Source: a virus
Direction: 5' to 3' (one strand)
IMG/VR virus record: IMGVR_UViG_3300047409_000574
Location: 32,001-96,000 of that record
DNA: 64,000 nt
Part shown: positions 15,456-60,548 of the stretch, piece after piece
Position numbering within the stretch: the first letter of the stretch is position 1
Layout of the letters: each line of letters opens with the position of its first letter
Notes under the pieces: generated by a model
Databases searched by the model: none
What the model was told of the DNA's origin: nothing
The model's input: the letters and a program-made list of their open reading frames with translations, nothing else
Program-made: the position numbers and the translations under genes

Positions 15456-16022
15456 GTGGCTATCGGTCAGATGCGTGAGGCAGGTCGCCCGACGCGGGCG
15501 ATTCGTCTCACCTTCAACCCGAAGGTGACCTGCCCCGCCGGTGACCCGGTGTACGAGAGTCCCGAGGGGTCGGGGGTGCGCTGCGCGATCGAGCGGAACA
15601 CGCTTTCGGCGTTGCGTGATCCGTCCTCGCTTCTGACGTTCTGCCTGTCGCGGTACGACTCGTGTCCGACCTGGGAGTTGGAGAAGCGGCGGGTGGCGGA
15701 TCGGATCGCTCGGGAGCTTGCCGATGATCGCTCGGATCAGATCGAGCGTCCCCCGCTTCCGGCGGCGGTCTCGCTTGGTGGCGAGACCGAGGTCACCTAC
15801 TTCGAGGGTGACTGAGTGGGCGGCTCGATGACGACCGTGCCGAAGAAGCGGGTGATGGTGCCCGTGCCCGGCATGTACCTGACCGACGGAGTTGTGCTGG
15901 TCGAGTGCGTGTTGAAGCAGCGCAACGGCTGGCAGGTCGCAAACGTTGTGACTGATGCGCGTGAAGTGATCTCGCTTGCTCATCTCGCGAACTGGCGGGA
16001 GGTGACTCCGAGTGCCGCGTGA
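15456..16022 (+). CDS. Two adjacent hypothetical proteins (15456-15815, 15816-16022)
   Basis: Abutting ORFs immediately upstream of the portal. Confidence 0.5.
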
Positions 16023-18267
16023 TGGCCTGCTCGGCAAGACGCTTGACAGGCTCGAAGAACTAACTGGGCTGACTGTCGTAGATGGTGACTACCTGCGCGT
16101 GCAGGAGGCCGTCGCGAGCGAGGCGATGGTGCTCGCGCAGGAACTCGACGAGGTCGGCTACACCTGGATGGGGTTCAACCAGGGCAGGCAGAACGAGGTA
16201 TCGGCTGTCACCCGTCGCCGGTGGGCGCAGCAGGCCCGGATTGTCTGGCAGGCCGACCCGCAGGCCGGGGCCGCGGTCGAACTACTCAACGAGTTCTCGC
16301 TCGGGCGCGGGGTGCCGAAGCCGCGCGCGAAGGACGACGAGGTGCAGGAGGTGATCGACGAGTATTGGGACGACCCACAGAACCAGCGGGTGCTGACCGG
16401 TTACGCGTCGCTCGTCAAGCTCGGCACCTCGCTCTCGATTCAGAGCAACGTGTTCCCGCTCGTGTTCGACGACGGCGACGACGGCAAGGTCAAGTTCTCG
16501 TTCCTGAACCACGACACGGTCGAGTCGGCCTACACCGATCCGCTGAACCGGCAACGGGTGCTGTTCTATCTCGCGCGCAAGCATGAGGGCGAGTGGGACT
16601 TCCTGACCAACACGTGGAAGCCGGTGAGCCGACCGGACAAGCTCCTCTACTACGAGAACTGGGGGGCGCTGCACGAGGCGCTGGTCGAGCGCGGCGAGGA
16701 CACCGACGAGGCGAAGGACTGGCTCGACAAGCTGCGTAAGAAGGTTGCCGGAACGGAGGAGGTGGACAGCGAGTACGCCTACGGGCAGCCGGGCGAGGAG
16801 ATCGACGCGATGGGCACCGGGCTGATGCTGCCGCCCTACAACCGCTGGGGCGAAGGCAAGGTCTACCACCTCGCCGAGAACCAGGACATGGAGATGATCT
16901 TCGGCGTGCCGCGCATGCGCCGCACGATCCGCTGGTACACCGCCTACAACGACTTTATGAAGGCGCGGGTGGACATGGCGATGGGTGCCGCTGCGTTCCT
17001 CGCGCAGAAGAAGATTAAGGGCAGCCCCCAGGCGATGGAGAAGATCGCGCAGCGCGCGACCCGTGCGGTGTCTGATCTGCGCGCGACGATCGACTCGACA
17101 CTGATCGGCGGCGAGGAGGTGAAGCAGGGGCCGCGCCCGGCGTCGTTCGCGACGATGACCGATTCGGTCACGTTCGAGCCGCTCAACCTGAACTCGGGCG
17201 CGGGCAACGCGCTGACCGACGGGCAGATGCTTCGCGCGCAGGTGTCGGCCGGTGACCGCTGGCCGCAGCATTACCTGGGCGATGTGGGGAGCGCGAACCT
17301 GGCGACCGCGACCTCGATGGAGCTTCCCGCGCTCAAGCATGTCGAGGCGCGCATGGAGGTGCTGGAGAATCTGTTGCGCTTCGGGATCGACCGGTCGATC
17401 GAGCGGGCGGTCGAGGTCGGTCGGCTCGACCCGAACGTGGACACGACGACCGACGAGAACCCGAAGCCGGAGGAGCTTGTCGATCAGACCGGCCCGTACG
17501 TGAACGAGTCGCTGTACGAGGTGCTGGTCGAGTCGGCGCAGATGATGTGGCGCTCGCGCGGCAAGGACGTGATCCGGCCGACGATGGTGCTGCGTCACCT
17601 GGAGACCGGGCTGCCGGAGTTCGTGCTGCTACGGGAGGCGCACGAGGATCGGCAGGACGACGAGCAGGACACCGGCCGTGATCTCTCCTACGAGTTCGGG
17701 ATGCCGTCACCGTTGCGCCGGACGATGGGCGACGTGGTGACGGCGGTCTCCCAGCTTGCGACGATGGCCGACCCGAACGGGCTGAACGTCGAGTTGACGC
17801 GCACGCTGTTGACCTACGCGTTCGCGCAAGGGCTGGAGATGCAGGACGCATCCGATGTGGTCGATGCGATCTTCCCGGCCGACTACAACCCGATGGCGGC
17901 GATGCAGGCGATGCAGGGCGGCGCGCCGCCGGGTGCCGCGCCTGATCCGTTCGCGCCGGACGCGACGAGTCAACCGGCCGATCCGAACAATCCGTACAGC
18001 GCGCCCGCGCAGGCGACTCCGCCGGAACAGGTGCCGCTGAACGAGGCGGGGGTGGTTGGTTACGACCGGCTGGGGGAGCCGATGATCCTGTTGCCGGGCC
18101 GGGCGCGGGTCGGCCAGACTCCGCTCGGGATTGATGCGGCCAAGCGTGCCCGGCAGGCTGGGCTGGACGCGTTGTTCACGGCCGAGACACGGGGGGCGAC
18201 GATGGAGGCGCTTGCGGGTCTGACGATGAACCGGCTGGTGGACGAACCCACAAACGGCGACCACTAG
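16012..18267 (+). CDS. Portal protein
   Basis: Position between TerL and MuF; ADPQAGAAVELLNEFSLGRG, VQEVIDEYWDD..N, G.P.HYLGDVGSANLATATSMELP; Pro/Ala-rich tail. Confidence 0.8.
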   Translation: MPRDGLLGKTLDRLEELTGLTVVDGDYLRVQEAVASEAMVLAQELDEVGYTWMGFNQGRQNEVSAVTRRRWAQQARIVWQADPQAGAAVELLNEFSLGRGVPKPRAKDDEVQEVIDEYWDDPQNQRVLTGYASLVKLGTSLSIQSNVFPLVFDDGDDGKVKFSFLNHDTVESAYTDPLNRQRVLFYLARKHEGEWDFLTNTWKPVSRPDKLLYYENWGALHEALVERGEDTDEAKDWLDKLRKKVAGTEEVDSEYAYGQPGEEIDAMGTGLMLPPYNRWGEGKVYHLAENQDMEMIFGVPRMRRTIRWYTAYNDFMKARVDMAMGAAAFLAQKKIKGSPQAMEKIAQRATRAVSDLRATIDSTLIGGEEVKQGPRPASFATMTDSVTFEPLNLNSGAGNALTDGQMLRAQVSAGDRWPQHYLGDVGSANLATATSMELPALKHVEARMEVLENLLRFGIDRSIERAVEVGRLDPNVDTTTDENPKPEELVDQTGPYVNESLYEVLVESAQMMWRSRGKDVIRPTMVLRHLETGLPEFVLLREAHEDRQDDEQDTGRDLSYEFGMPSPLRRTMGDVVTAVSQLATMADPNGLNVELTRTLLTYAFAQGLEMQDASDVVDAIFPADYNPMAAMQAMQGGAPPGAAPDPFAPDATSQPADPNNPYSAPAQATPPEQVPLNEAGVVGYDRLGEPMILLPGRARVGQTPLGIDAAKRARQAGLDALFTAETRGATMEALAGLTMNRLVDEPTNGDH

Positions 18268-18846: not shown

Positions 18847-21800
18847 CTCGCAGCCGCCGGAGCGGCAGCCGCCACCCGGAACCCTTCCCCCCGGTGAGGT
18901 GGCTGCCGCTCTTGGTGTGACCGCCGGTGCGGGCGCTGCGGTGGTGGCCCCGGCCGCGCCGGGCGTGGTGGTGGGGGCGGTCAGTGAGGCTGGGCTGCTG
19001 GCGGCGATGGCGGCGATCGTCAAGGCGTTCAGTGTGTTCCAGCGCAAGCGCCGGAAGGATGAGGCGATCTGGTTGACGGTGGCGTTGCGCCGCCAGTTTC
19101 CGCATCGCACGGAGAAGCAGATCACGACGCTGGTCGATGATGAGCTTCGCCGGGAGGCGGAGTTCCAGCGGAAGGCGCGCGACCGGATGGAGCGTGATCT
19201 GCCGAAGGCGTTGCGCATCTCTGATCCGGTGGAGCGGCAGGCGGCGGTGCAGGCGTTGCTCGACCGGGAGAAGCGCTACGTGGACATGCGTGAGGAGGCG
19301 ATGGCGAAGCGCGCGTCGGCGAAGGCGGAGTTGCACGACGTGAAGGAGGTCTCGCCGGACGGCGCGTACTGGAAGCTCGGCGACGCGGTCACCCACACTC
19401 TGGACTGTCACCCCCCAGGGGTTCTAGTCGAGGGGCCGGAGGCGCTGGCGTCCTTTGCCCGGCCATATACGGGAAAGCTCCTCCGCATCATGCTCGCCGG
19501 TGGACAGGAGCTTGCCGTCACCCCAAACCACCCGGTACTGACCGACGCCGGGTGGAAGGCCGCGAACACGATCCATGAAGGCGACTGCCTGTTCTGCGGC
19601 GGCAGGGGCGAGGGGGACGGCCTCACAGTGGACGACCATCAGGATGCGCCATCCAGCATCGCGGAGGTGTATCAGGCGCTTCAAGACGCGCCGACGAGCT
19701 TTAGGGCCACACGCAGTATCGGTGCGCTCGATTTCCACGGCGACGGCATGCCCGAGTCCGAAGTCAACGTTGTAGCGCTCGGCCGCGACTTGTTGAGGGA
19801 CTGGGTCGAAGCCCAGGTCGATGAGCCAGTCCCCGAAGATGTGTTCCTCGTTCGTGATCCAATGTGCGCTGGCCTGGCGACCGTTGGCGCGCGCGAGCAG
19901 CGCCGCGTCGGAAGGCTTGATTCCCTTGCGGGCGTGTTGGCCGACGGCGACGGCGACACGCCAGGTAGCTCTCTCGTCCGGGGTCATTCGGCCGACTGCC
20001 AGAGTCGTCGCTTCTCTGACGCCGCGTATCGTGACTCCCGCCTTGAGCAGCTTGCCCTTGAGCGCCTTGCGCGAGATGGAAAGCTCGTCGGCCAGACGCT
20101 TGACGGACTCGCCGGTCTCATAACGACGGACTATGTCGTCGAGGTTGTCGAGGACGATTTCTCTGGTCACGTCTACAGCCTTTCAACTCGTGGCGGGTGG
20201 TATGCGGCCAACGGAGTGATCGTCGCCAACTGCATGTTGATGGCCGAGCGCTTCTGGCCTTGGGTCGTATTAGACCAAGTTCACCCTCTCATGCATACCG
20301 GTTGCAAATGCTATTTGGTTTCCAAGCGAGAAGCCGTCGAGCGGGGCTACATGGAAGCGGACTTCGTGCCAGACGAGAAGGACGCCGTCGCAACCGCTGT
20401 TGCGAACATGCGCCGCGCCGGTCACATCCAGGAGGTGGCTTGGCCGGAGGAGATCGAGCAGTTCATCGAGGACACGCTGACCGAGGCTGACGAGGGCGCG
20501 TCGCTCGACGGGGCGATGATCGCGTTCTATGTGGAGCCGACCACGGCGAAGAAGCTCGCGCTCGGAGGCAAGGACACCGAGCCGCCGGAGCAGTTGCATG
20601 TCACGCTCAAGTTTCTGGGGGACGATGCGAGCAAGATCAAGAACCGCGCGAAGATCGAGCGGGTGCTGGCGGAGTTCGCGGCGGGCGAGAAGCCACTCGT
20701 GGGGAAGGTCGCGGGTCTCGGTGAGTTCAAGGCACCGTCGGGCGGCAAGGAGGGCACGGTGAAGCCGGTGTTCGCTAAGCCGGACGTGTCCGGCCTGTCG
20801 GCGTTCCACGATCGGCTGATCGACGCGCTGGGCAAGCTCGTGCGCGAGGACGACTACGACAGCTATGTGCCGCACATCACGCTGGCCTATGTGCCGAAGT
20901 CGAAGCCGCTCGGCGAGGTGGAGAAGCCACCGGCGTTGCCGTTGCGCTTCGAGGAGATCACGCTGGCGTGGGGCGGGGAGAAGAAGTCGTGGAAGCTTGG
21001 GGCGAAGCTCCAGGAGGCCCGGTGGGAGCGGCGCTTCCCGAAGGGGAGCGAGCACGCGGGTGAGTTTATGCCGAAGGCGGCGACGGCGATCCGGCGGACG
21101 GTGCGGGCGGCGCTCAAGGACTTGGTGCCTGCGAAGCCGGTGCCGTTGTTGCAGGAGCGCGGGAAGCCGCAGGGCCGCCATGTCTGGTTGCGTGGCCGGT
21201 TCGTGTTTGTGCCGCGTCGGAAGGCGTGGAACCGGAAGCTCGACCATGTGCACTTCCACTCTCCGGCGCAGTCCACGAACATCTACCGGAACGGGAATCT
21301 GGTGCAGATCGAGGGGCAGCCTGCGCCGCCGCACCATCACGATCTGAACCCGCCGACGGGCGCGGACATTCGCAACATTCCCGGCACGGCGGAGTACGAC
21401 CCCGGCCACCCGGACAAGGGCGATCCCGGCAAGCGTTCGGCGCGTTCGCAGGGGCGCACACGTGAGCAGGAGATCGGTTCGCTGGAGTCGCTGCTGCGCG
21501 ACCCGGAGCTTCCGCGTGACGATCGGATTCGCTATTCGGCGAAGTTGGCGGAGCTTCGCGGCGACCACAAGTTGGCGGCGAGCTTGCGCGCTCGACTGGG
21601 CGACAAGGGGGGCGTGCACGACGCACCGGACTTGAGCGACGAGGCTGTCGTGGCGTTGCGCGAGAAGATCGTTCAGGCGCGCGCGCCGGAGATGGATGAG
21701 GTGAACGCGCGGGTCGAGCGGGCGCTGGCCGAGCAGGACTTCAACGTGAAGCCGATCCTCGACGGTGACTCGATGCCGATTGTGTCGGAGGTGCTCGAAG

Positions 21801-24800
21801 CGCACGGCTTCGCGGCTGGCGGGGTGTGGCAAGACCACGCCAAGAAGCCGCTGTCGGAGTGGGGCACGGACACGTCGGTGTCGTTCTTCCATCCGGCGTC
21901 GGGCGCGCGGGTGACGGTGTGGTGGCGGATGGGCGAGTTCCGGGTCAGGCACGAGGTGTGGGGGCAGGGTCGGAAGAACTGGGATCACCCGCCCGAGCCG
22001 GACGATCATTCGCCGCGCGACTGGGAGGAGTTCGCCGACGAGGTGCGCGGGGTGGCGTTCCGGCTGGCGCACGAGAACGGTGCGTCGCCGAACGTCGGCG
22101 AGGTGGAGCACGACCCGACGGTGAGCGATCACGGCGGCTTCCACAACAGCTACACCGGCCTGATCCGTCTGGGCGAGGACTCCACTGACGTGCTCGATCT
22201 CGCCGCGCTACGCACGGGGACGACCTACGACAGACGGCCGTCGCCGGAGGTGTTGCAGGGCGTGTGGGCGTCGTACAAGGTCGGCGTGCACGAGGCGATC
22301 CACGGGGCCGGGAACGGGATCGGGAACGAATACCAGGTGGCGAGCCACAAGTCGGTCGAGGAGGCGCTGACTGAGGAGCTTGCGCATATCGAGACGGTGA
22401 AGCTGCTGCGCGCGCACGGCGCGACCGACGTGCTGGAGTGGTATCGCGCGCACCCGTTCGACTACCGCTCGCTCGGCACCTACTGGCCGCACCGGCGGGC
22501 GATCGACACGATCTTGAATCAGGCGGGGATCGCACCGGAGTTGCGGGAGGACTACCTGCGCAACCTGCGCTGGAACGTGAAGCCGTTTCTTCGGATCGAG
22601 ACGCTGGTGGACGCGGTGGTCGCCGGGCCGAATCCGCACAACAAGGATCGCGACAAGACCCATCACTGGGTGACCGATCTGCTCACGCGTGCGGAGGAGA
22701 CTGGCTACGGCGGCGACAAGTTCGTGCCGATCCTGCGCCCTGATCTGCGTGACATGGCGGGGCCGGACGGGGTGATGTGGAACGGCCGCCGGATCAGGGT
22801 CGGCTCGATCGTGCAGATCGAGACGGGCCGCCGGGAGAAGGGTCGCTGGAAGAAGGTGCTGGTCGATGCGGAGGTGCTCAAGGTCGGGCAGGCAGCCCAG
22901 CCGCCGTTCCTGTTCAAGCTCGATGTGCGCACGTCTGATGGCAAGCATCAGCACAACGTGATGAACACGCAGGTGAAGGGTGTGCATGCGACGCCGGAGT
23001 CAGTCGAGCCGCCGAGCATCGTGTTGGGCGACGCGCAGCAGGACAGCGCCGGGAAGTGGGCAGGCGAGGGCGCGCGAGTGCGGGTGCTCACCGGCCCACG
23101 TATGGGCGTCGAGGCGAACGTAGTGAGCGCGCGTTACGGCAGCCCCGGCATCCTCTTGCTCGACCACGGTGGCGAGGTTGGGACGCTGGAGACGACCACG
23201 CAGTTCACCGCCCCGCTGGAGAACCTGGAGGTTGTCCAGGAGTCGGAGCCGCCGCAGAAGATCACGGTCGGCGATCTGATCCGCTACGACGGCCGCGCGG
23301 ACGGCGGACTGTCGGAGGCGCGGGTGACCGGGATCGAGAAGTGGGGCAGCGGCGACCGGGCCGGGTTCTCGATCGAGGCGATCACGACGGAGAACAGTCT
23401 CAAGCCGGACACGCAGGTGACGTTGACGCAGGAGCGGATGACGACCGTGCAGGCGGTGCCGGAGGAGCCGCCGGTTGCGATGCCGGAGAACTGGCCGAGC
23501 TTGGCGGCGGTGGCGGTCGCGGCTGATCCCGGCGCGGTGCCGCCCGAGGCGCGCACGGCGGAGGAACGGCAGGCTCACGGCGAGCGGCTTGCGCGGGTGC
23601 GGGAGGAGTTCGCGAACGGCGTGCACGCGAAGTGGGGCGAGCGCGGGATGGGCACCCGGAGGACGAACACGGTGACGCCGATGGGGACGTGGAGGCGGCT
23701 CGCGCCGGACAAGATCGCGGCAGGCGACCATGTCCGGTTCACGTCTACCGGGCCGGTCGCGCCCGCGTTCGACTCGGAGGGCACGAAGCGGTCGTTCTTC
23801 GTCAAGACGGTGGTCTCCAGCGCGAAGGGCCGGGCGGTCGTCACTGACATAACCGGCGTGGAGTACACGATCACTTCGGCGCAGCGGCCGACTAAGGAGC
23901 ATCTCAAGACTGGCTACCACGATCTGTTGCTTCGGCTGGCGAAGGCCAAGGGCTACTTGGCGAGCCACACCGATCCGATGTATGCGATCTACGACCACCA
24001 GGACGACGTGCACAAGGTGCTGACGGGGCTGGTGACCAACCAGGAGGGGTCGCTCCAGTCGAGGCGTGAGGTGGCGGTACGGGTGCAGGGAGACTCGTTT
24101 GCGGCGGTGCTGGCGGCCGGGCGGATACAGAACGGTCACGAGGACGGCAGTCTGCTGCCCGTCCGGTGGAAGGACAGGCCCGGCGAGGGCGGCTACGGCG
24201 CGCGCCGGTGGGAGTGGGAGCAGCGGGCGTTCTCGATCCCGGAGGGCGCGCCCGCGGCCGACCATCCGATCTACGGCTACGTCGCGACGCCGAACGAGTC
24301 GCTCGACCGGTCGATCGCCAAGGCGTTCGGCGAGGTGAAGGTGACGCTCAAGGACACGGTGCGTCCGCGTACGACGGTCACCTACTCCGACTCGAACTAC
24401 ATCGGGGTGCCGACGGGGGATGCGATGCCGTCGCCGATCAACCGGCCGCAGGAGCACTCGGTGGTGCCGTGGCAGCACGAGGGGTTCGGCTGGGTGCGCA
24501 AGCCGGTGGTCGAGATGGGCGACCGGCCGCGCCCGTATCCGCCGTTCACCCCGAGGGAGGAGGCGCTGATCCGGCAGGCCGGGCACACGTGGGGCGCGAG
24601 CGACCCGAAGGAGATGGAGGCCAACCGGGAGGCGAAGCGTCGGGAGGTCGCGCGCGCGAAGGGCTGGGAGCCGTGGGCGCACGGCGACTTCATCGAGGCG
24701 CAGATTCACGGCGGGATCGGACTCGACGATGTGGCTCGGGTGGACTTCCCGGCGAGCTTGGAGTCGGTGCCGCCGGAGTGGACGGCGGAGCTTGACCGGC

Positions 24801-27800
24801 TGGGGATTCCGTGGGCGCACCAGCCGGTCGATGACGCGGGCGCAGGAGAGAAGGGTGACGCGCCGGGCGGGTATCCGAAGTCGTCGCCGGAGTCGTTGGA
24901 GATGCCTGCTGGGACAACGCTCTGGCATACGACTCCGGCCTACTCTGAGGATGCGGTTCGCGCCGAAGGGTTCCGGGCGAGTCCGCACGGCGAGAGCGGC
25001 CCAGGCATCTACATGACCGATGATCCGACGTTCCGCGACAGGATGACGCGGTACGAGGAACTGTCTGGGCGTGGCGGCGCGGAGCGGGTTGCGATCACCG
25101 CGATCACGACGAGGCCGCTGCGGCTGCTTGACCGGCAGACACCGGAGGGCGAGGCGCTGCTGCGCAAGATTCAGCAGGACGCGTCGGCGAGCGGGGAGGG
25201 TGCGCAGCCGGGGACGTTGACGGGGTTGCGGGCGGCTGGCTTCGACGGTGTCCGGTACGACTCGTTCGGCGACATGGAGGTCGTGATCCACGACCCGACG
25301 GCGCTGGCGATCGTCGGCGGCGAGAAGGGTGACGTGCAGGAGCCGTGGCAGGTGCCGAAGCTGGAGTTCGCACCGAAGCCGGACTATCCGAAGGAGGTGT
25401 TCGACGCGTACATCGCGCGCACGCTTCCGCAGGCGAAGAACGACGAGGTCGCGGACGCGTGGAACACGCTGCGCGAGCGCGAGCAGGAGTGGGACGCGAG
25501 CATGCGCCGGGCGCTCTCGCTCGGACAGATCACGCTCCCGGATGCGAAGGCGCTCGGCTACTACCCGATGGGCCACGAGCAGGAAAGCGAGTATGTAAAG
25601 GGGACGGGCTGGCAGCCGCTTCCGCCGGTGCTTTACCACGTGACGACGGCGGCGTCGGCGGTGCGCGCGATGGGTCTCAAGACTCGCGCCGAACTGGAGA
25701 TGGACAACGGAGTTGGTCTAGGCGCGGGCGACGACGCGACGATCAGCTTCACGGCTGATCTGCCGACGGCGGTGGGGATCGAGCGGGCGATCCGGGAGGC
25801 GGTCGAGGTGCTGGCCGGGCGGGTCACGCTCGACGAGATCATCGAGCGGGCCAAGACCGGTTCGGATGCGCAGCGGCCGTACTACAACGAGTGGGCGGAG
25901 AGCAGGAGTGGGCCGAACGGGGAGGAGCCGAAGTTCCTGGAGTGGATGCGCCGGGGCCGCAAGATCGACACGAGCTTCCAGGGCGCTTTGCTACCGACGC
26001 TGGCCGGGTGGCGGGAGGCGCTCGGTGTCGAGGATGTGGAGGGTGTCGGCGAGCCGTACATGGGCGCGAAGGACGGGGTGCCGCGCTTCGCGTCGGTGAC
26101 TCGTCCGATGACGGAGGAGGAGCGCCAGCACGCGGTCTGGGATGTGTGGCGGGAGCTTGCGATGTCCCGGGAGAACATCGGCGGCGGCCCGATCGACCCG
26201 ATGTTCATGTCCACGGACACGGCGGCGCTGGCGCGGGTTGATCCGAACGAGATCGCGACGCTGACGGTGCATCCGAAGCCGGGCGCGCAGGGCTACCCGA
26301 TGAGCGGGCTGGGGGAGTGGCGGACGGCGACCGGCGACGCGGTGCAGGTCGTGGGCCTGGGCGAGAAGGGCGACCCGCCAGTGGGGCCGCCTGGCCCGCG
26401 CGCGGAGGCGGTGCAGTTGACGCCGGAGGAGTTCGCGGCGCATCCGCGCACGTGGTGGCACGGCACGAAGTTCGGCAAGCTCGCGGACTCGGTCGAGACG
26501 AGCGGGCAGGGCTTCCACATCGGCACTTACGAGGCGGCGCGGGAGGCGGTTGCCGCGCAGACCGGAGACGATCCTGGCCCGCGAGGCGATCCGCAGGCGT
26601 TGGCGCTCGGTGTGTTCAGCAGGTACATGGTCGAGCCGCAGGCGCAGGCTGACGGTAGCTACACGTTCGACTACCAGACCGCGCCCGGCAAGGCATGGAA
26701 CCGCGACTACGGCACGATGCGGGTGCGGTTCGAGGGCGACTGGATCGTCGCTGATTCGACGCCAGGCCCGGCCGTGGAGACAGGAACGCGTACCGTCCAG
26801 TCCGCCACCGGGCCGATGGAGCTTCCGGCCTACGAGCCGTTTGAGCCGTGGTTGCGCACCGCGAGCAGGAGGTCGTGGTTGGGGGCGCGGTACAACGGCG
26901 TGGAGCTTCTGCCGCCGGGCAAGCGGCCGTACACAGACGCGGGCGTACTTGCTGGCCCGAACGCGCCATCGGAGCCGTTGGAGGGGATGAAGATGGTGCC
27001 GGTTTGGATTGTCGGGGAGATGACGAACACGCCCCGAGACCCGCGCAAGGATGGTGCGGCGAACGCCAGGATGACTTCGTTGCTCAAGCGCGGCCAGGCC
27101 CGGCGCGGCTGGTTCTACGAGAATGACTCTGAGGATGCCGGGTCGGTTTCGGCGGCGCTTCCCTCGCGCGCGCATGTGCGGACGCATGAGGACTTCGTGC
27201 GGGAGGCGGTGCAGAGCGGTGAGCCGGTGCCCGCGCATGTGCTTGCGAGCTACCCGGCGCTTGGTGAGAAGGGCGACGTGCCGCTCGACAGCTTGAACCC
27301 GACGGATGGAGTATTCGCGGACTACACCCCGGCAGAGCGCGCGAGCGCTCCGCTCGGTGGTGCTCTCACGACGCTCGACAAGACGATGGCGGTCGATCCC
27401 GAGACGCCGGTGACGATCTACCGTGGTGCTCCGGCGCATCAGCGGGAGATCGCGCCGGGCGACTTCGTCACCACGAACTTGCAACTCGCCAGGGACTACG
27501 GCGGCGGCCACGTGATCGAGAAGCAGGTGCCCGCATCGCATGTGCTCGATGACTCGTCGGAGCCGCTCGGCGAGGAATACATCTACCGTCCACCCCCGAT
27601 CACCGGTCGTCCGTTCGAGGCGACGATGTATCACGGCACGTTGCTGCGCAACCGGCCGTCGATTCTCCGGCACGGCCTGCGGCCCGACCCGGACACAAAC
27701 GACGTGTGGTTGACCGACAACGAGAAGAACGCTCGGAGCTACACCGACCGGACGATGATGGGCGCTCGCGGCGCGGTCGTGACGGCGAGGGTGCGGCTGG

Positions 27801-30800
27801 AGAATCCGTTTGTGATCGACCGGACAGGAGCGAACGCTGACCGTGATCTCTGGAAGCTGTTGGAGCCGGAAGGAATCAAGGACGGCGACGCGTTCTGGGG
27901 CGACGCGTTGAGGGCGCGTGGCTACGACGGGATCATTCATCGTGGCGATGAGGGAACCGATGTAGAGGTGTTCGGTGACCATGCGGGCCAGGTGTCGGTG
28001 CTCGGTGCGGAGAAGTCGAGCGGCGAGAAGGGCGGCGGCAGTCTCGGCGAGCACGACCATGTGAATCAGGGCTACTGGTCGGAGGACAACCCACTGTTCT
28101 TCCCAGAGCATCCCGCCGTTCAGTTGCAGGACGGACGAGAGCAGGCGTTCTGGAAGGCGACCTACTACCCGCGCATGGACGACTTCGACTTCTGGCTGGC
28201 GAACGAGAAGGGCATGCCGCACCACGACGAGGTGCGTAGCAACCGCGACCCGTTCGAGTCGCGTGGTGCGAGCATCGACGTAGCCGGGTACGGGCCGGAC
28301 TGGACGCCGGACAAGCACTACGCGGAGTGGATTCGCGAGGTGGCTGACAACATCGCGTCGGGTTCGACACCGGAGGAGCTTGGCTACCTGTACGCCGACG
28401 AGGTGCCGCCGCACGACGAACTGGTGCAGGAGGTCTACGACGACTTGGTGGGCCGGATTCGTCAGCGGGTGCGGGGCTACCGGCGTGACATGAATGACGC
28501 GGTCGCGATGGCGTCGGGCGAGAAGGGCGACCGGCCGTACAGTGTCGTGCCGGACGTGCCGCCGGGCGACAAGGGCGATGTTGGCCCGCCGCGGGTGTAC
28601 GCGCCGTTCGACCCGGCGGCGATCGGTCTGAACGAGAAGGACAGCGCGGGCAAGCTCTACACCTGGCACGGCGAGATGCAGAGGGCGACCGGCCAGCATG
28701 TGCGCGGCAACCCGATCGCGCCGAACGACCCGCGTATCCCGCCGGTGCTTTACCACGCGACGACGAACCTTCCGGCGGTGCTCGACGACGGCTACTTGCG
28801 CGGGCGCGGGGAGGGCGGGCTGGGCGGCGACGACACCGACCGGATCGTGAGCCTGACGACTGACGCGCAGACGGCCGTGCAGATCGCGGCCGACCTGCAC
28901 TTCCTGGGCAGGCTCGGCCGTGAGTTCCCGGTGATGCCTGCCTATTCGGAGACGAAGGTGCCGATCGAGGCGAGCGACCCGGAGTGGATGCAGAGCCTCG
29001 ATTCCAAGACGCTGATCGGGGACGAGCGTGTCGAGACGAACCAGCGGATAGTCGAGATGCTGGTTGCGCAGGCCAAGAGCGAGGGGTGGGAGTTCGGTTC
29101 CGCTGCGACGAAGGGCGACGGCGGCCCGTCGTGGAAAACCTACGACCTGGGTGACTGGTTGAACCAGTATTTCCATGAGCGCCGCTCGCAGATCGGAGTC
29201 CAGAACCCGATCGTGTTCAACACGACCGAGACGGCGCGCAGCATCGACCCGGACAAGGTCGGCGTGGTCGTGGTGGACAAGGCGGCGCTTGACAACGGGG
29301 CGGTGCTGACGGACTTCGATCTGTCGCGTGACTTCGGCTTGAGCGAGATCAGGAGCTACGGCGACGTGCGGGTGACGGGGCCGATCCGCGACTCGCTGCT
29401 CGTCGGTTACGGCGCGCCCGGCCTGGCGACGGGGGAGAAGGGCGGCACGCCGGACACGGTCGAGCCGCACATCGTGGCGGCCTACGAGGCGCGCAAGGCG
29501 CTGCACGAACTGCTCTACCGGCGCAACGGGATCGAGCACCAGGACACGCCGGAGTGGCGGGCGGCCGACGAGGCGGTGCAGGCGGGCGAACGGGTGACGG
29601 CGGAGGCCGAACGTGTCGCGGGCGGCCGGGTGTTCCGGCTGCGCGAGGATCAGTTGCACCAGGCGAACAAGAAGATCAACGACCTCGCGCGCCGGGCAGC
29701 CAAGCTCGGGCTGGCCGAGCCGCGCATTGTGCCGATGGGCGACGAGTTCCACCCGGTGATGAAGGACGGCCAGCCGACCGGCGACCTGGCGAAGCTTTCC
29801 TACATCCGCGTGGAGGGTGAGGAGCCGAAGATCGCAGGCTGGGAGTTCCTGGCGACGTTGCAGCATCTCGGCGGCGTGAATGTGGTGCGCCGGGTGCCGG
29901 GCAACGATGAGGGCATCTCGTTGGAGCAGTACCACCACGGCGACGCGGTCTGCGACTACTGCAAGACCAAGCGCGACCGGAAGGACACGTTCATCGTGCG
30001 CAACGTCGAGTCCGGGCTGACCCAGCAGATCGGCCGGTCGTGCCTCAAGGACTTCCTGGGGCACGGCGATCCGACGGCTATCGCGGCGTACTTGGAGCGC
30101 TGGCGGGCGATGGACGATCTCGGCAGCCTGGGGGATGACGACGGGGAGGGTGGCGGGCGCGTCAAGACGTATCTGCCGCTCGACGACTACTTGACGCATG
30201 TGGCGACGATGCTGCGCACGCAGGGCTGGTCGCCGCGCTCGGGCACCGGGTTCGCGACGGCGGATGCTGCGCGGGAGAACCACTACAACTTTGTGCGCAA
30301 GAACAACGACCAGCGCGGCAGGCCGATGTACGAGGTGCCGACGGCGGAGGATGAGCAGCGGGCGAAGGACGCGCTCGACTGGGTGCGCACCACGCTCGCG
30401 CCGAAGCAGAACAAGTCGGAGTTCGAGCACAACATGGCGGCGATGACGAGCGGGTCGCATGTGCCGGAGCGCGGGGAGGGGATCGTCGCCTACGTGCCGG
30501 TCGCGCACGCGAAGGCGCTGGAGAAGGAGATCGTGCTCCAGCGCGAGCAGACAGCACGCGGCACGTCGGAGCATCTCGGCACGGTGAAGGAGCGCTTGAA
30601 GCTGCGGCTGACGGTGGAGGCGGTGTTCGAGCGCGAGGGTGACTACGGGGTGACGTACATCACCCGGATGGCCGACCCGGACGGGAACATCGTCAAGTGG
30701 TTCGGCTCCTACCCGTTGGAGCAGGGCAAGACCTACGAGGGCATGTGGGGGGTGAAGAAGCACGACGAGTACAAGGGCGGCAAGGAGACGGTCGTGACCC

Positions 30801-33800
30801 GGCCGACCAAGCTGGAGATGGTTGTCGAGGACACCGGCGAGAAGGGTGACGCGCCGGTGCGCTACGAGGGCGACTTCCTGGAGCGCCGGGCGCAGCGGGA
30901 TGCGGCTGCTGCCGCCCTGGCGACCGGGGGGCCGGTGCATGCGCCGTCGGAGTTCATCACGTTGCCGAAGTCGGGCAAGCTTCGCGCGCCCGCGATGGAG
31001 GCGCTCGCGGCGCTCGATTCGTTGCTGGTGATTCCGCCGATGCATGGGCCGATTCCGGTGAAGGCGACGGCGGGCAAGAACACGCGGGGTGGCTATGCGC
31101 GCAGGCCGGATGCGGATGCTCCGCGCGCGCCGGTTTGGGAGGGGCCGACGGTGCGTATGACGGGCTTCGGCAAGGGCCGCTCGAACCGTCCGGCGAAGCT
31201 CGCGTCGGAGATCGCGGTTGGTGACGTGATCGTGTTGGCGGCGGGCTACTACGCGCCGGTGACGGCGACGAGCCAGGAGGAGCACGAGATCGGGTTCGGG
31301 CGTGAGCCGGTGATGAAGGCGCATATCACGATCGACCGGGGCGAGGGGGGCAAGCCGAACCTCCAGGAACTCACGTACAAGCCGGACGAGTTGATCCCGT
31401 TCCAGTGGGCACCGGCCGCGGCGGATGTGCCGGAGCATCCGACGTTGTATCCGAAGGAGATCAGGGTGTCGGTCTCGGATGACAGGGACACCGACTCGGC
31501 GCTGGCAACGCTGATTCACGAGATGGGCCACTACATCGACAACCAGGCGTTCCGTAACTACCCGCGGATGGCGGGGTTCGCGACCGACCATGCGGGCTTC
31601 CGTGTGAGGGGGGATGAGAAGGAACGCCGTGAGGCGGTCGAGCGGATGCGCGCTGCGGGCCAGAAGGGCGTCGATCTGTTGGAGCTTTACGATGCGGAGG
31701 AGACACCGTTGTCGGCGTGGTTGGAGGCGGTGCGGGACAGCCCCGAGGCCGAAGGGTTGCGCACCGGCGTGTCGTACGCGGAGGCGGCCACGCACAAGTA
31801 TTTGCTTTCGCCGAAGGAGTTGTGGGCGCGCTCGTTCGCCCAGTGGGTGGCGACCCGTTCCGACAACCCGGCGCTCAAGGCGTGGCTGGTCTCGTTGCAG
31901 AACCAGCCGGACACGCACATCGTGCAGCACAAGCGTTACGACCGGGTGGCGCACGCGAACGTGCTGGTGCCGGTCGAGGAGAAGCGGCCGAACTATCTGC
32001 TGTTGCGCCAGTGGTCGGATGAGAACTTCGTGCCGATCGGCGAGGCGATGGACGTGCTGTTCGAGCGTCTACACTGGTTGCGTGGCGGAGCCGGGAGTGG
32101 ACGAGACGGGGACACCGATCCTGTTGCCGGACGGCTCGTTGGAGGCCGATCCGGTGGAGGAGTTGGTGATCGACATGCTCTGGTCGCCGACGCTCTCGCC
32201 GTCGCCGGACTAGGCGAGAAGGGAGGCTCCGGCCTGCCGGACACGGTGTGGTTGGAGACATCGCCGTCCGATCTCGGGCATGCGCGCATGAAGGATCGGG
32301 TGCCGTGGAGCTACGACCCGGCGAGCGGCCGGTTGTTCATCGGCTCGGGCGGTTCGGATCACACCGAGCTAACGCGGGCGATGCGCGCGCAGGGTCACGA
32401 GATGGGCGACGACGAGTGGAACGGCGTGTGGATGATGGACGGCCCGAGCGTGGGGGTGCATGTGCACTCGAACCTGGGGCCGCCGGACTTCGGCAACCCG
32501 CTGGGTCACGATGAGCCGTTGCCGCCGGTGCTGGCGTCGCGGTTGCGCCAGGCGTTCGGCGGGCCGCTGCACGGGCACGCTGGCGGGGAGAAGGGTGATC
32601 CCGGTGTCGCGTCGCTCAAGGGCGACGGGCCGTTGCCGATGGAGAATGGTCTCTACTACCGCCTACACACGGTGGGTGCGCCGTTCGGGCCGGAGCATGC
32701 GAGCACGGTGCCGCCGATCCCGGAGGAGGTGGCCGCGTCGAGCGAGGTGATGCGTGGACTCGCGACGCCGAAGCCGGGCTACTCGGCGTTCTGGAATCCG
32801 CATCATCTCGTCCAGTACGCGGAGGCGATGAGTTGGGAGCCGACGAAGGTGCGGGTGCTCGCGTTCCGGGGCACACCGATCGGCGAGGGCAGCGATGGTG
32901 AGCCGCGCGTGATGCCGGACTCGACGAAGGTCGAGGCGCGGATGGGCTGGCAGAAGTTCGTGGATCGCACCGACTGGACGCCGAACGGCTACGGGATGTG
33001 GCACGAGCACACGTGGGGCGATGGGCCGGACGGTCGGATCGCCGACGACGGCTACCGCACGCTCGCGCAGCTAGGTGACAAGGGCGACATGACGAACCCG
33101 GAGTTGCTCGGCGGCGCGTGGACGTTGCCGATCACGTACGACCGCGACGGTCTCCACCATGTGGTGCCGATCGACGCGACGATCGCGCCGGACGTGCAGC
33201 GTGCGATCGACCGGGGCTTCACTACGGTGGCGTCGTGTTCGGGCTTGAAGGCCGATCATCCCGAAGGGGCGGGCAACCCGCACGCAGGCCGGTCGGGCGA
33301 CGGCTATCTGGCGTTCCCGTTGGCGGCTCACTCACCGGAGCAGATTGCGGCGATCGAGCACGCCGCGAAGCAGGCTGGGTTTGCTCATCTCTACGCCGAC
33401 GTTTACGGCGAGCCTGGGCTGATGGTCTACACGCCAGACATGAAGCTGCGCCAGCGCGCGTACCGTCAGGCGAACGAGGCGGTTGGGCTGGCCCCGGATG
33501 CCGACCCGCCCTCTGGGGCTGCGTTCAACGAGTGGTATGCAGCACGCGTGGCCGCGTTCAAGAGGCTGGGTGTCGGCCGGGCGACCGACGAGGAGGTCGC
33601 ACCGGCGTGGCGGGAGTTCTTCGACACGCTGAACGGTGCACGCCAGCCGGTGGACTACGCGAGCATCCCGCCGGTGCTCTATCACGCGGCGCGTGACTCG
33701 ACCGCGAGCGGCGGCGGCGATCCGGTGGTGCATGTCGAGGTCGCCCCGGCGGCGGCCGAAGCTGGCGCGCTGATCCAGGCGGGACACGAGCGCGCCGGTG

Positions 33801-54391: not shown

Positions 54392-55087
54392 ACGAGCAAC
54401 AAGCGCATCACCCGCTCCGCGACCCCGGCTCCTGGCGTGACTGTCGAGGTCGAGCGCGAGAGCATGGGCCAGGTGACCGAGTACGAGGTCTACGTGACCA
54501 ACGCGAAGGGGCGTGTTCGCTGGGGCGGCGGCACCAAGCGCGAGGCCCAGCGCATCTTCGACCGGACGGTCAAGAGGTTTGCGAAGGGGGTGGCGAAGTG
54601 AGCGGCGAGTTCTGCACCTGTCAGCAGGTGAGTAGGAACGTGTTTGACTGCCCGCTGCACGGCGAGCGGTTGCGCGCCGACTCGGTGCGCTACCAGGCCG
54701 AGCAGGAGTCGAAGCGGCAGGCGCGCGTCGAGCGTCGGGCGGACGACGCGGAGTACGCGCGCGGTGTGGACGACACGCGCCGGGCGCAGGAGGCTGGCCC
54801 GGCGGGTAGCGCCGCACGCGAGCAGGCGTACCTGGAGATGGAGGCCCAGTGGGCGCGGGAGGGTCACGATGGCTGATCTGGAGATCACACGTGACCGCAC
54901 CGGCGAGTTCATGGTCGTCCAGGTCGAGGGCGTCACTGACGCCGGTGTCGAGTTCGTGGACGGCTACTGCCCCGTAGGGGTGGAGTTCCAGGTGATCGAC
55001 AGCGGCCGGATCATCGTCCCGGAGCAGACGGCCGAGGCGATCCAGATTCTTGCGCGCGAGCGCGGTCTCACAACGGAGGTGGTCTAG
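54389..55087 (+). CDS. Three small hypothetical genes (54389-54601, 54598-54876, 54869-55087)
   Basis: Coupled ORFs after the repeated promoter. Confidence 0.55.
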
Positions 55088-57566: not shown

Positions 57567-59146
57567 GGAATGGTCACTTGACGATCGGAGAGCAGGATTG
57601 GGAGCCGACGGAGGAGCGGCCGACCCGGCTGGTCGAGGTTGGCGATGGAGCGGCCCGGCGTTTCTACGTGGTGAGCGAGATCAGCGGGGAGGTTGCCAAC
57701 GGGGCCGCCCAGATGATTGCCTTTCAGGCGGATGAGGAGTTGTGCCGGTTGAAGTGCAGGGAGGCCCGCCGGTCGATCGAGGAGGCGCTGTATGCGCGGG
57801 TGGTCGAGTGGAGAACCGAGACCGGGAGGGCCAAGGAGTGAGCTACTTGACGGCGCATAGGTACGGACTGACGCACGTGGAGCCGACCGACGAGGAACGG
57901 CAGAGCGGGTGGCGACAGGTCTGGGAGCATCCGTCAGGACTGAGAGCGATGCGGCATCCGTCCACGGGTCGCTGGCATGTCTCGGACGGCTGGGCAATCG
58001 AGGACGGCTTCTGTAGCAGCCTGCGCGCGGCTGCGGCGAAGATCGAGCGCATGGTGGCGGCGCGGGACGCGGACGTTCATGCCTGACTACGCGCTGGTGG
58101 GTGATGAGTCCACGGGGAAGTGGACGGCGCATACGGCGACGTGTGAGGTTGCCCGGCAGGCAGCCGACGACGGGGTGCCGGTGATGACGCTGCTTGGTGC
58201 GAAGCCGTTGCCGCCCTACTTTCGGCTTGAGCGACACGAGTGCCTCAATGGCCGCTGAATACACGGTGGAGGAGGCGAACGTGCAGGCGGTCAAGGCCGC
58301 CCGCTACTTCGGGACGGTGCTGGCGCGCCACTCGCGGACGGTGATCGCGGTCGAGATCGACGGGGTGACGATCGTGGTTGCGCGTGAGCCGGATGGTGGG
58401 AAGCTCGCGGCGGCGGTCGAGGGCGCGGCGGGGATTTTCGGGCCGGACTACAAGGTCAACCGGCTGACGCGCACGCAGGCGGAGACTGTGGTGCCGCCGG
58501 AGCCGAATCGCGGCGTCACAATGTCGGCTGCGCCGGACGAGCCTGTCGATGCAGGAGCCGGACGCGACGAGAACCTTGTTGCGCCTGCTGCGCCGGGCGA
58601 GCCTGTGCAGGTGGTGGTGTTGGTGCCGATGTATCACGTGCCGCCGCCGGAGCACAATCAGAAGCCGGGGCATGTGCACCTGCACGTGCTCAACGATGCG
58701 AAGCTGGGCAGACGGTTCCGCAAGTCCGGTGAGTCCATCTGCTGGAAGAAGAAGGGCAGCAACCAGCGGTTGCCGGACGGCGAGACGACGATGTGCAAGG
58801 AGTGCGTGCGCGTCGCGGCCCAGAACAACCTGGAGTGGAAACTATGAGCGGGGAGGAACGCGTGGACAACGAGACGAAGCTGAACCTGCTGGCGAAGGAG
58901 ATGGGCGACCGGTTCAACGAGGTGCTCCGTGAGCACGACGAGGAGGTGCACGAGGGGGAGCGCTGCGAGGACGAGCGGCTGAACATCCTCGCCTATCTGA
59001 TCCACCGGATGGGCGCGCCGGGCGACGACCACTCGTGGATTCGCTTCTTCGGGCTGCTCAAGCTGCGGGTGGAGGACTACTCGGTGATGCACGTCGAGAA
59101 CCACCGGCATGAGCACGACCACAACGGGGACGGGCCGCATGGCTAA
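57563..59146 (+). CDS. Five small hypothetical genes
   Basis: 57563-57841, 57838-58086, 58079-58258, 58248-58847, 58844-59146. Confidence 0.5.
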
Positions 59147-60548
59147 CGACGACGCGAAGGACAACTACGACCGGGAGATGCAGCAGGTCGAGCATCTGCT
59201 GTCGAGCGCGATGACGTGGCTGGCGATCTGGTGTCCGCACGGGATGGACTCGGCAAGGGTCAGCGACTACTACGAGGCGGCGGCGTTGCGCGCACGGATC
59301 GAGCGGGCACGGGAGGCGCTGGCAGGCAAGGCGGGCGACGCGACCGAGGTGGCGCTCGGGAAGCTCCAGACGATGTTGCAGGAGGTGCCGAGAATTGACG
59401 CGGCGACGATCGCTGAGAACGCCATCGGCCTGTTCCTGGAGGATATGGAGCGAGGCCACTGGGTGGTGAGGGAGCCGCCGTACGACATTCTTCGCCTGGG
59501 GCAGCTACCGGGTGCGCTTGTGCGGGCGGCGCGCGCGTCGGCGGTCGCGGAGATCGTGCAGGGTGTCGAAGCCGATACGCCTGACGCACCGGGCCTGGTC
59601 GAGTTCGTGCGGTCGAACGCGGAGCAGGGCGGCTCGCTCACTCCCGAGGATGTTGAGGCGGCCACGTCGGGTGCTGAGTGTCGTCGGCTGCGCGGCCCGT
59701 TCCAAATCGGCCCGACGTGTACGTGTGCGCCGGAGACGTGCGCGCTCGATGTGCCGGAGCATCTGGAGCCGACACCGGAGAACACGGGGGTGCGGTCGCT
59801 GCGTGAGCAGGCCCATTCGATGGGCGAGGCGCTGGCGGCGCTCTGGCATGCGGGGGCGCGCACCGGGTCGCTCCCGAGCGCGAAGCTCCACGAATACATG
59901 GGGCTGACCTGGGAGGAGTATCAGGGATTCGTGCAACTCTCGGGGCCGTGGTCGGACAAGCCCGTGCCGGGCGGTGCGGGAAGCTGGCGGACTGGGCGTA
60001 AGGTCGGGAGGACTATTTACCGGCAGGTTGGCATGCAGCCGACCGACGACGATCCGCTGATCGGTGTGATGGACACCCGCGAGCTTGCCCAGCACGCGGT
60101 GGATAGTCGGAACGAGCATCAGCGTGACCTTGACTTCTTCGCTGACAACGCGGATGACTACTTCCGCATGTTGAACGAGTTGCGGGCGGCGGCGACCGAG
60201 TACCGGCGGATGGTCGAGTCGCGCCCGGCGGCGAACGAGGCCGAGCACGAGGAGCGGGAGGCGTCGATGGAGGAGGCGACCGCGGCGCTCGACAAGGCGC
60301 TGACGTGGAAGCCGACCGCCGACGACATGGGGCTGCTGGGGATCGCGCATGCGGGGCTGCTGCGCGCGCTCGACTTTCGGGCTGCGACGCCGGAGGCGCT
60401 GGCGATCAAGCTCGACGTGCGGGTGGCGCTGCGCCGGTCGGGGTTCACCGGGCCGATGGGCGAGCAGGGTGACGGGGCCGGTCGTTCGGGGATGGTCGAG
60501 GACAGCCACCGTCCGGCTGGGCCGATGATGTGGAGAGACGGAACGTGA
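59139..60548 (+). CDS. Mosaic hypothetical protein
   Basis: Contains WRTGRKVGRTIY..LIGVMDT.ELA motif; appears multi-modular. Confidence 0.55.
   Translation: MANDDAKDNYDREMQQVEHLLSSAMTWLAIWCPHGMDSARVSDYYEAAALRARIERAREALAGKAGDATEVALGKLQTMLQEVPRIDAATIAENAIGLFLEDMERGHWVVREPPYDILRLGQLPGALVRAARASAVAEIVQGVEADTPDAPGLVEFVRSNAEQGGSLTPEDVEAATSGAECRRLRGPFQIGPTCTCAPETCALDVPEHLEPTPENTGVRSLREQAHSMGEALAALWHAGARTGSLPSAKLHEYMGLTWEEYQGFVQLSGPWSDKPVPGGAGSWRTGRKVGRTIYRQVGMQPTDDDPLIGVMDTRELAQHAVDSRNEHQRDLDFFADNADDYFRMLNELRAAATEYRRMVESRPAANEAEHEEREASMEEATAALDKALTWKPTADDMGLLGIAHAGLLRALDFRAATPEALAIKLDVRVALRRSGFTGPMGEQGDGAGRSGMVEDSHRPAGPMMWRDGT

Follow-up and report, generated by a model that had tools for sequence, protein, structure and literature searches.

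The question raised by this locus is what an intein carries when its own reading frame holds no recognisable endonuclease, and whether a long open reading frame (ORF) lying inside it on the opposite strand is a gene or a by-product of base composition. The locus is part of a stretch of 64,000 nucleotides (positions 32,001 to 96,000 of the IMG/VR virus record IMGVR_UViG_3300047409_000574), referred to here as the window, and consists of a class-1 intein within a giant plus-strand ORF and of a minus-strand ORF nested entirely in the intein (Table 1). Both had been noticed in an earlier reading of the letters alone (the sequence-only reading), which placed the intein and its splicing blocks, saw no LAGLIDADG or HNH motif, and proposed as the homing endonuclease gene the minus-strand ORF, with its GTG start complementary to the block F His codon, its GAAAGG Shine-Dalgarno (SD) sequence and a C-terminus running over block B. 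These features were all found as described, and Pfam agrees on the intein. With respect to identity and architecture, the element very probably belongs to the mobile inteins that carry an 'anti-sense VSR-like homing endonuclease'. Such inteins ('anti-sense VSR-like HEN', HEN standing for homing endonuclease) have been described from actinophage minor capsid proteins (Gosselin, Arsenault and Gogarten, bioRxiv 10.1101/2025.01.02.630785), which bears out the earlier caution that out-of-frame endonucleases in actinophage inteins might already be reported. The window is one more example of this kind described in 2025, and the architecture is already in print.

On the plus strand, the elements by which a splicing domain is recognised are present: Cys1, Asn275 followed by Cys+1, the Thr-x-x-His of block B, and blocks F and G. 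The intein matches Intein_splicing (PF14890) with E 3.2e-7 and 30.7 bits, under the cut-off of 35.8, and matches phrog_15127, an intein-bearing head protein, with E 8.2e-29; neither LAGLIDADG nor HNH gave a Pfam match in the intein. Cys1 is aligned in 71 of 74 relatives. The Ala-Asn end had been singled out as lacking the usual penultimate His. The Ala is indeed present, but it is not unusual: phage inteins often lack the penultimate His and still splice (Kelley et al. 2016), which makes this end ordinary for a phage intein. Of the relatives aligned at this position, 30 have His, 5 have Lys and 4 have Ser. Two inteins from IMG/VR (L035 and L055) start with Ala rather than Cys (...HPRGK|AELP...), with Cys+1 and the antisense nuclease gene both retained, and may represent class-2-like variants.

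The triplets of the minus ORF coincide with those of the plus frame (19424-19406 = 18), so that the two are antisense and codon-aligned, and the minus ORF has its start, its SD and its stop inside 19406-20230. In such an arrangement a stop arises in one frame only where the other has TTA, CTA or TCA, the reverse complements of the three stop codons, so that either gene has just three sense codons to avoid. In the host ORF these three amount to 14 of 5277 codons, and codon-aligned antisense open stretches reach 2025 codons elsewhere in it. Since TTA, CTA and TCA are rare in the host ORF and long antisense open stretches arise anyway, the openness of the minus ORF in the window alone proves nothing, and the case beyond chance comes from homologues. 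The G+C content at third codon positions (GC3) of the plus frame is 0.69 over intein residues 76-255 versus 0.87 in both exteins, in line with the earlier observation that plus-strand codons of the intein end in A or T more often than those of the flanks. Read in the nuclease frame, the same stretch gives GC3 0.76 > GC1 0.69 > GC2 0.46.

A tblastn search with the minus ORF as the query found homologues in 79 phage records, aligned along 82-95% of its length with identities near 30%. Most come from phages of Salmonella (62), followed by Gordonia (8), Idiomarinaceae (2) and Escherichia (2), with single records for Cronobacter, Pantoea, Shigella, Jerseyvirus and Vibrio. Among the matches listed (40 of 79), all lie under head-morphogenesis, MuF or unnamed genes. 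In each of the seven GenBank records checked, the match is antisense to an annotated MuF or head-morphogenesis coding sequence and forms an open ORF of 233-316 residues; the antisense ORF is annotated in none of the GenBank records checked. A second collection was taken from IMG/VR, where 415 of 476 candidate stretches were confirmed. The best 80 of the 415 were kept and, with four GenBank loci, make up a set of 84; subsets of distinct loci were used for later counts. In all 84, spanning a locus GC of 0.37-0.72, the ORF lies inside a longer open frame of the other strand, in register 0, and within a MuF-type intein at one conserved host site. Judged from these collections, the architecture turns out to be common and to extend well beyond actinophages, reaching Gammaproteobacteria phages and uncultured viral contigs by the hundred. 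In nearly all loci the stop of the nuclease ORF falls within about the first 25 intein codons; its start, SD and stop thus all travel inside the mobile unit.

The number of antisense stops to be expected was computed for 73 distinct loci over the homologous stretch, from the codon usage of the exteins of each locus. In total 236.6 stops were expected and 3 were observed, all near the C-terminal end. The frame is open also at low GC (down to 0.37), where 4-18 stops per locus are expected. Over 29 codons around block B (71 loci), 30.0 antisense stops would be predicted from the extein codon usage and from the Leu and Ser residues that occur there, and none was observed. The sequence-only reading had allowed that a GC-bias shadow ORF would show itself by stops in close homologues; the counts speak for a real gene family, which we take the minus ORF to be, and not for a GC shadow.

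The proposed order of a helix-turn-helix (HTH) region followed by a Vsr/DUF559-like nuclease was borne out at the level of the family, and the earlier reservation that the minus ORF might have no nuclease homology no longer holds. The alignment used (A2) comprises 69 non-identical family members including the window protein. Tyr133, Asp136 and Glu146 are invariant in 69 of 69, the window included, within a consensus A-V-G-x-Y-N-x-D ... P-V-A-V-E-x-x-G-G-x-W-H. PF18741 (REase_MTES_1575) is matched by 62 of the 69 members, with a best E of 8.7e-10, and DUF559 by 15; various HTH families match the N-terminus. The family profile matches the DUF559 structure PDB 3hrl_A with E 1.1e-7 over positions 102-200, and less strongly 3r3p_A, the catalytic domain of I-Bth0305I (E 1.4e-3), and Vsr itself (1cw0, E 0.018). 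A profile search of 1.84 billion representatives returned 1741 cluster representatives at E<=1e-30, which are 240-446 residues long and contain one to five HTH-type stretches (the window protein has one). Neighbours in the ESM Atlas are viral clusters with DUF559 and HTH domains; the names found by cluster look-up were uninformative, one being 'transposase-like protein', and a word-indexed protein search gave no match. Asp136 aligns with the catalytic Asp196 of I-Bth0305I, and the column of His213 holds Ala in the window. The column aligned to Asp222 contains His (20), Leu (14) and Ala (6) in the family rather than Asp, in an alignment that is weak (E 1.4e-3). The predicted protein is therefore filed as a Vsr/DUF559-like nuclease related to the EDxHD enzymes, and not as one of their members. 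The Vsr-type fold assigned to the family rests on sequence profiles and on the 2025 preprint.

As the frames are codon-aligned, a single codon alignment serves both, and the frame under selection could be determined across homologous inteins, as the sequence-only reading had advised. For each of 15 disjoint pairs (62-89% nucleotide identity), the ratio of nonsynonymous to synonymous differences (pN/pS) was smaller when computed for the nuclease frame (0.31-0.68) than for the host frame (0.57-1.19). The ratio of differences at nuclease codon position 3 to those at position 1 was 1.39-1.96 over nuclease residues 1-180 (intein residues 76-255), 1.04 over residues 181-200 (intein 56-75), and 0.47-0.70 over residues 201-248 (intein 8-55). 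This switch along the gene indicates that coding in the middle of the intein serves the nuclease, the host ribosome just reading through it, and that coding of the N-terminal splicing domain serves the intein. Amino-acid identity agrees: in every bin of intein residues 76-255 it was lower in the plus frame (0.43-0.69) than in the minus frame (0.57-0.79). By these substitution patterns, the nuclease frame is the selected one over nuclease residues 1-180, the plus frame being merely kept open; over residues 201-248 the intein frame dominates the substitutions, with the minus frame still free of stops in the relatives. The earlier view that both strands are constrained over about 750 nucleotides thus reaches too far: dual constraint is concentrated at blocks F and G, through the expression signals, and around block B.

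Signals for expression of the minus ORF were sought in upstream regions aligned on the start codon. Of 74 distinct loci, 65 begin the ORF opposite the block F His codon that precedes V-Y-(N/D)-L, with the reverse complement of this codon as the start (ATG in 53, GTG in 12), and 58 of these 65 have an SD core, usually GGAGG, 4-17 nucleotides upstream. The corresponding host codons depart from extein usage, which among 61 loci would predict CAT for the block F His in 17.0 and CTC for the block F Leu in 18.6; they were observed in 50 and 48 loci, respectively. About 51 or 54 nucleotides before the start lies a -10-like hexamer, which is the antisense of Ile-Ile or Ile-Val in block G. When scored as at least 5 of 6 matches to TATAAT, with A2 and T6 required and within -60 to -40 (L022 and L073 were omitted as near-duplicates of L016 and L066), the hexamer was present in 36 of 63 loci, versus 1.9% of same-size segments elsewhere in the loci; 12 are perfect TATAAT and 14 are TACAAT, and an extended -10 (TGn) is also present in eleven loci. 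Where block G reads I-I-x-(H/S)-N (n = 19), the first Ile is ATT in 14 (3.41 expected) and the second is ATA in 14 (2.66 expected). This choice holds even where the exteins use ATC only, and ATA accounts for 22% of the Ile codons elsewhere in the same inteins. With one value per cluster (40 clusters at >=50% protein identity), an SD was counted in 35, ATG in 30, TAnnnT in 28 and a hexamer with at least 5 of 6 matches in 21. Perfect TGcTATAAT, GAGG and ATG are seen in coliphage Snoke (L001), Pantoea phage AH01 (L088) and Salmonella phage LP31 (L089).

Without transcription and translation of the minus gene in its own right, such a pattern of synonymous choices would be difficult to account for. 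We consider it probable, with less assurance than the identity of the element, that the C-terminal splicing blocks double as the control region of the nuclease, spelling (TGn)TATAAT, GGAGG and ATG by synonymous choice against genome bias, and that the register is a rule. The codon-aligned register would be a rule and not an accident because both genes then have only TTA, CTA and TCA to avoid, and since the splicing blocks carry the nuclease signals, intein and endonuclease gene would form one self-contained element that is read in two directions.

Evidence on mobility came from a search with the intein of Snoke and its flanks, which found 228 phage records (related coliphages and Salmonella phages), 70 of them covering at least 80% of the query, i.e. 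with the intein present. Many Escherichia Kagunavirus records instead matched in two pieces making up about half of the query and spanning ~830 nucleotides, the length without an intein. In K1ind1 the site is uninterrupted (...PPAHPN|CRSTT...), with 96% identity in the exteins. The annotation of the Snoke locus L001 (MK931441.1) has an 'intein' mat_peptide of 630 nucleotides, versus an insertion of 272 residues (816 nucleotides) relative to K1ind1. Precise presence and absence of the intein among near-identical phages is what would be expected as the product of homing or of precise loss.

Splicing, antisense transcription, cleavage and homing are inferred from these comparisons, and together suggest the following scheme. 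The intein would be translated inside the giant head-associated protein and excised by class-1 splicing through Cys1, the Thr and His of block B, Asn275 and Cys+1. A functionless read-through loop would make up the central ~180 residues, at the place where inteins usually have an endonuclease inserted. On the minus strand the same codons, in exact register, would encode a separate HTH and Vsr/DUF559-like nuclease with its own SD and a start inside block F; in most relatives the full cassette appears to be laid out antisense in blocks G and F, in the order TATAAT-like -10, GGAGG, ATG. Most likely, the family nuclease cleaves alleles that lack the intein, at the MuF H-x-x-N|C-x-C site, and recombinational repair would then copy intein and nuclease gene together. 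That antisense expression uncouples homing from the late expression of the host gene, as had been suggested, is plausible.

Several points weigh against this reading, some in general and some for the window copy in particular. Since the ORF itself was the bait for the loci, and one of the two patterns used mirrors block B in antisense, degenerate, free-standing or non-intein copies are under-sampled. The codon-choice counts include related sequences and are not independent events, a problem that the recount by cluster reduces but does not remove. The window protein alone matches PF18741 with E 6.4e-4 and 20.2 bits, under the cut-off of 38.2. It keeps 26 of 35 conserved core positions, the fourth lowest value of 69 (median 32), and it has R-T-D-T-A where the family has Gly-Gly (54-56 of 69), Trp (47 of 69) and His (55 of 69). 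A -10-like element is absent at the family position in the window, where GTG-ATC of block G gives GATCAC, and in neither the window nor Snoke did a sigma-70 two-hexamer scan detect a promoter ahead of the minus ORF; the -10-like element of the family came to light only when upstream regions were aligned on the start codon. Finally, an inactive copy would look intact here, because the host frame forbids frameshifts and antisense stops are rare.

The window copy may thus be a relic: the descendant of an antisense homing endonuclease that is now silent or catalytically dead and stays open through the intein frame and GC bias. We give this sub-case of the antisense homing endonuclease reading slightly less than an even chance. 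It would account for the missing GG-x-W-H, the low core count and the replacement of Trp180 by Val, for the absent hexamer, for an SD (GAAAGG) weaker than the family GGAGG and for the GTG start, and antisense stretches as long as 2025 codons stay open in this host ORF by composition alone. Decay does not fit as well with other features. Tyr133, Asn134, Asp136 and Glu146 are kept, the protein can be aligned end to end with the copy of Salmonella phage LP31 (31% identity, E 3e-23), the order GC3 > GC1 > GC2 still holds in the nuclease frame, and a GTG start is also used by 12 of 65 family members. The loop His of the family aligns with His213 of I-Bth0305I, which has been proposed to act as the general base and which dimerisation requires as well (Taylor et al. 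2011, PMC3239194). The Snoke, AH01 and LP31 copies read GGGW-A, with Ala in the loop-His column as in the window; the widespread Jerseyvirus/Kagunavirus copies have this Ala. Because these copies have Ala there and keep their expression signals, the loop His may be dispensable, which also tells against a relic. The leader RNA of the window minus ORF is not unusually structured (z -0.61). Overall, it is possible but doubtful that the window copy is still expressed and active, given that the -10-like hexamer and GG-x-W-H are missing, the SD is weaker and the start is GTG.

An antisense gene of this kind could also have another job. Its protein might serve the phage as an HTH regulator or as a nuclease against competing phages or host DNA, or the antisense transcript might tune the head gene. 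Some features would suit such a role: the number of HTH modules varies between 1 and 5 matched stretches, the loop His is absent in some large clades, and some Vsr-like groups look vertically inherited according to the main text of the preprint (bioRxiv 10.1101/2025.01.02.630785). We nevertheless hold it to be improbable, because all 84 loci have the gene within an intein, at a single conserved host site, precise intein-plus and intein-minus alleles exist among phages that are ~90% identical, and the nearest characterised relative by sequence is a homing endonuclease.

The chance is very small that the minus frame is a shadow ORF, a by-product of GC content and plus-frame conservation that yields no protein in any lineage; openness in the window is as uninformative as stated above and the conserved QYRV.WGD tail is the mirror of block B, but a shadow would explain neither the low-GC loci, nor the nuclease and HTH profile matches, nor pN/pS and codon-position patterns that favour the minus frame over 180 codons, nor synonymous choices that yield SD, ATG and TATAAT. 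It is just as unlikely that the middle of the intein is functional in the plus frame (for example as a novel in-frame endonuclease), with the minus ORF secondary, since this frame, although necessarily translated and open everywhere, has no Pfam domain beyond the splicing blocks, has the lower identity in every bin and a depressed GC3 over intein residues 76-255, and shows no recognisable structure according to the preprint (bioRxiv 10.1101/2025.01.02.630785).

The antisense homing endonuclease reading can be compared with five known systems. The inteins of Gosselin et al. (2025) are likewise non-split, without an in-frame endonuclease and with an antisense Vsr-like ORF wholly inside, and they share with the window family the minor-capsid-type hosts and the matches to 3R3P and Vsr. 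Their survey covers PhagesDB only, as far as the main text states, whereas the window belongs to an uncultured 126-kb soil phage and the host ORF has 5277 residues. In contrast to the preprint's account, ORF, start and SD (and the -10 in relatives) are here found to overlap blocks A-B, F and G. In the main text of the preprint, supplements excluded, the terms promoter, ribosom-, start codon and register do not occur. Neither the invariant register and its three-codon logic, nor the embedded -10, SD and start, nor a frame-by-frame selection map, nor the spread to Gammaproteobacteria phages and uncultured contigs was found there. Our literature search met antisense homing endonucleases in inteins, in the sense relevant here, only in this 2025 preprint.

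In the 'fractured genes' of Dassa et al. (2009, PMC2677866), a Vsr-like endonuclease gene lies between split-intein halves. As in the window, a Vsr-like putative homing endonuclease gene occupies the intein endonuclease site with short coding overlaps. In the systems they describe, all three coding regions are on the same strand, the halves trans-splice and the hosts function in DNA metabolism, whereas the window gene is reversed; it is because the nuclease gene is reversed and codon-aligned that the window intein stays one polypeptide. Taylor et al. (2011, PMC3239194, PDB 3R3P) characterised I-Bth0305I as the prototype of a homing endonuclease family that they named EDxHD. This enzyme similarly has an N-terminal HTH-type DNA-binding region and a C-terminal Vsr-like catalytic domain, but it is encoded in a group I intron rather than an intein, and the best solved match of our family is 3hrl, not 3r3p. 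For LAGLIDADG endonucleases, too, genes on the strand opposite to the intein have been described (Gorbalenya 1998, Gogarten et al. 2002, as cited by bioRxiv 10.1101/2025.01.02.630785), but these belong to a different nuclease family. The ShiLan insertion in phage methylases contains an out-of-frame 'hidden' HNH endonuclease (Arsenault et al. 2025, PMC11855218), a homing nuclease gene that likewise overlaps an open host frame, with the insertion read through; it differs in being on the same strand in another frame and in having no splicing domain, and it is described as without a detectable ribosome-binding site, leaderless initiation being proposed.

The window adds to this type a member in an unusual host, the giant polyvalent head protein of a 126-kb soil phage, and the annotation of an otherwise puzzling intein without an in-frame endonuclease is settled by a hidden gene on the opposite strand. 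The architecture was called rare and actinophage-specific in 2025 and is now seen as common (415 IMG/VR stretches, 1741 clusters, 79 GenBank phages); gene callers systematically miss the antisense nuclease gene. As an example of long antisense dual coding found in nature the architecture is a clean one, with a simple rule and with signals placed within catalytic protein motifs, and it bears on how inteins acquire endonucleases, here by invasion of a free-standing gene. The comparative work gives testable claims on how the antisense gene stays open and expressed, and the natural intein-plus and intein-minus alleles of coliphages allow the codon rule and the embedded signals to be tested directly. 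The window copy also teaches caution, as an antisense gene can look intact in a GC-rich phage and yet be inactive.

Table 1. Features of the intein locus and its surroundings in window coordinates. Residue numbers are those of the intein or of the predicted nuclease; functional names are assigned from sequence.
Feature	Position	Strand	Remarks
Class-1 intein, 275 residues, Cys1 to Asn275 (host residues 196-470)	19406..20230	+	Cys+1 at 20231-20233; Asn275 at 20228-20230
Block A, CHPPGVLV	19406..19429	+	Minus ORF ends here, its TAG stop being the complement of the Leu7 codon CTA (19424-19426)
Block B, VTPNHPVLT (Thr39, His42)	19517..19543	+	Antisense is GQYRVVWGD in the nuclease tail
Read-through linker, intein residues 76-254	19631..20167	+	Antisense of the nuclease gene; stays open, shows no selection on its own residues
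Block F, DFSGHVYSLST	20156..20188	+	His255 codon CAC (20168-20170) is the minus-strand GTG start
Block G, NGVIVAN, penultimate Ala274	20210..20230	+	Sequence motif
Nested antisense ORF, 248 residues, GTG start, TAG stop	19424..20170	-	Predicted HTH and Vsr/DUF559-like nuclease
SD-like GAAAGG	20184-20179	-	8 nucleotides before GTG; family consensus GGAGG is the antisense of block F Asn-Leu-Gln
Site homologous to the family -10-like hexamer	20216..20221	-	Antisense of block G residues -5/-4; GATCAC in the window, not -10-like
HTH DNA-binding module, nuclease residues 10-50	20021..20143	-	HTH_7, HTH_58, HTH_23
Nuclease core, residues 116-180	19631..19825	-	Tyr133, Asp136 (19763-19765), Glu146 (19733-19735); R-T-D-T-A at residues 149-153
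Nuclease C-terminal tail, residues 201-248	19427..19570	-	Antisense of intein residues 8-55, block B included
Portal gene	16012-18267		Upstream of the host ORF; phrog_10963 match, E 3.9e-26
Host gene, ORF of 5277 residues	18821..34654	+	Directly after the portal gene (MuF position)

The host of the intein had been called a MuF protein. Its position after the portal gene and the homologous inteins in annotated MuF genes agree with this, whereas profiles give no support: Phage_Mu_F (PF04233) was absent by profile from the first 860 residues, from the N-extein and from the C-extein, a test that is weak because the intein splits the domain, and PHROGs gave no MuF match for the N-extein. On the basis of its place and of the homologous inteins, the host gene is filed as 'MuF-position', not as a demonstrated MuF. 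The only Pfam domain of the host ORF besides the intein is a LigT / 2'-5' RNA ligase-like domain at about 20560-20970, and Pfam assigned no family to the other ~4500 residues. The junction reads THTLD|C...N|CML in the window and H-P-N|C...N|C-R-C in relatives. Close relatives of either extein did not turn up, so that no intein-less allele was found for the lineage of the window phage itself, and blastn of the region against phages gave no match. The giant ORF further contains 14 copies of G-(E/D)-K-G-(D/G), mostly (L/G)GEKGD, which are 16-1082 residues apart (window 21599-33907) and look like domain linkers or polyprotein processing sites.

The source record is an IMG/VR virus of 126,255 bp from soil metagenomes, with an estimated completeness of 91%. 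Genes in the window are nearly all on the plus strand, and the nested ORF had been taken for the only convincing minus-strand gene. This is not established, as three other minus-strand frames (54493-54963, 58661-59164 and 60161-60988) have a coding-like GC3 of 0.80-0.82. The sequencing runs listed as matching the window include no RNA run, and the two DNA runs, one of them its probable source, contained identical sequence only and no variants. Identical phage fragments (window 19101-19332 and 19859-20127) also turned up among the contigs of a second soil metagenome, sequenced in another study (X2), and the phage therefore is not confined to one sample.

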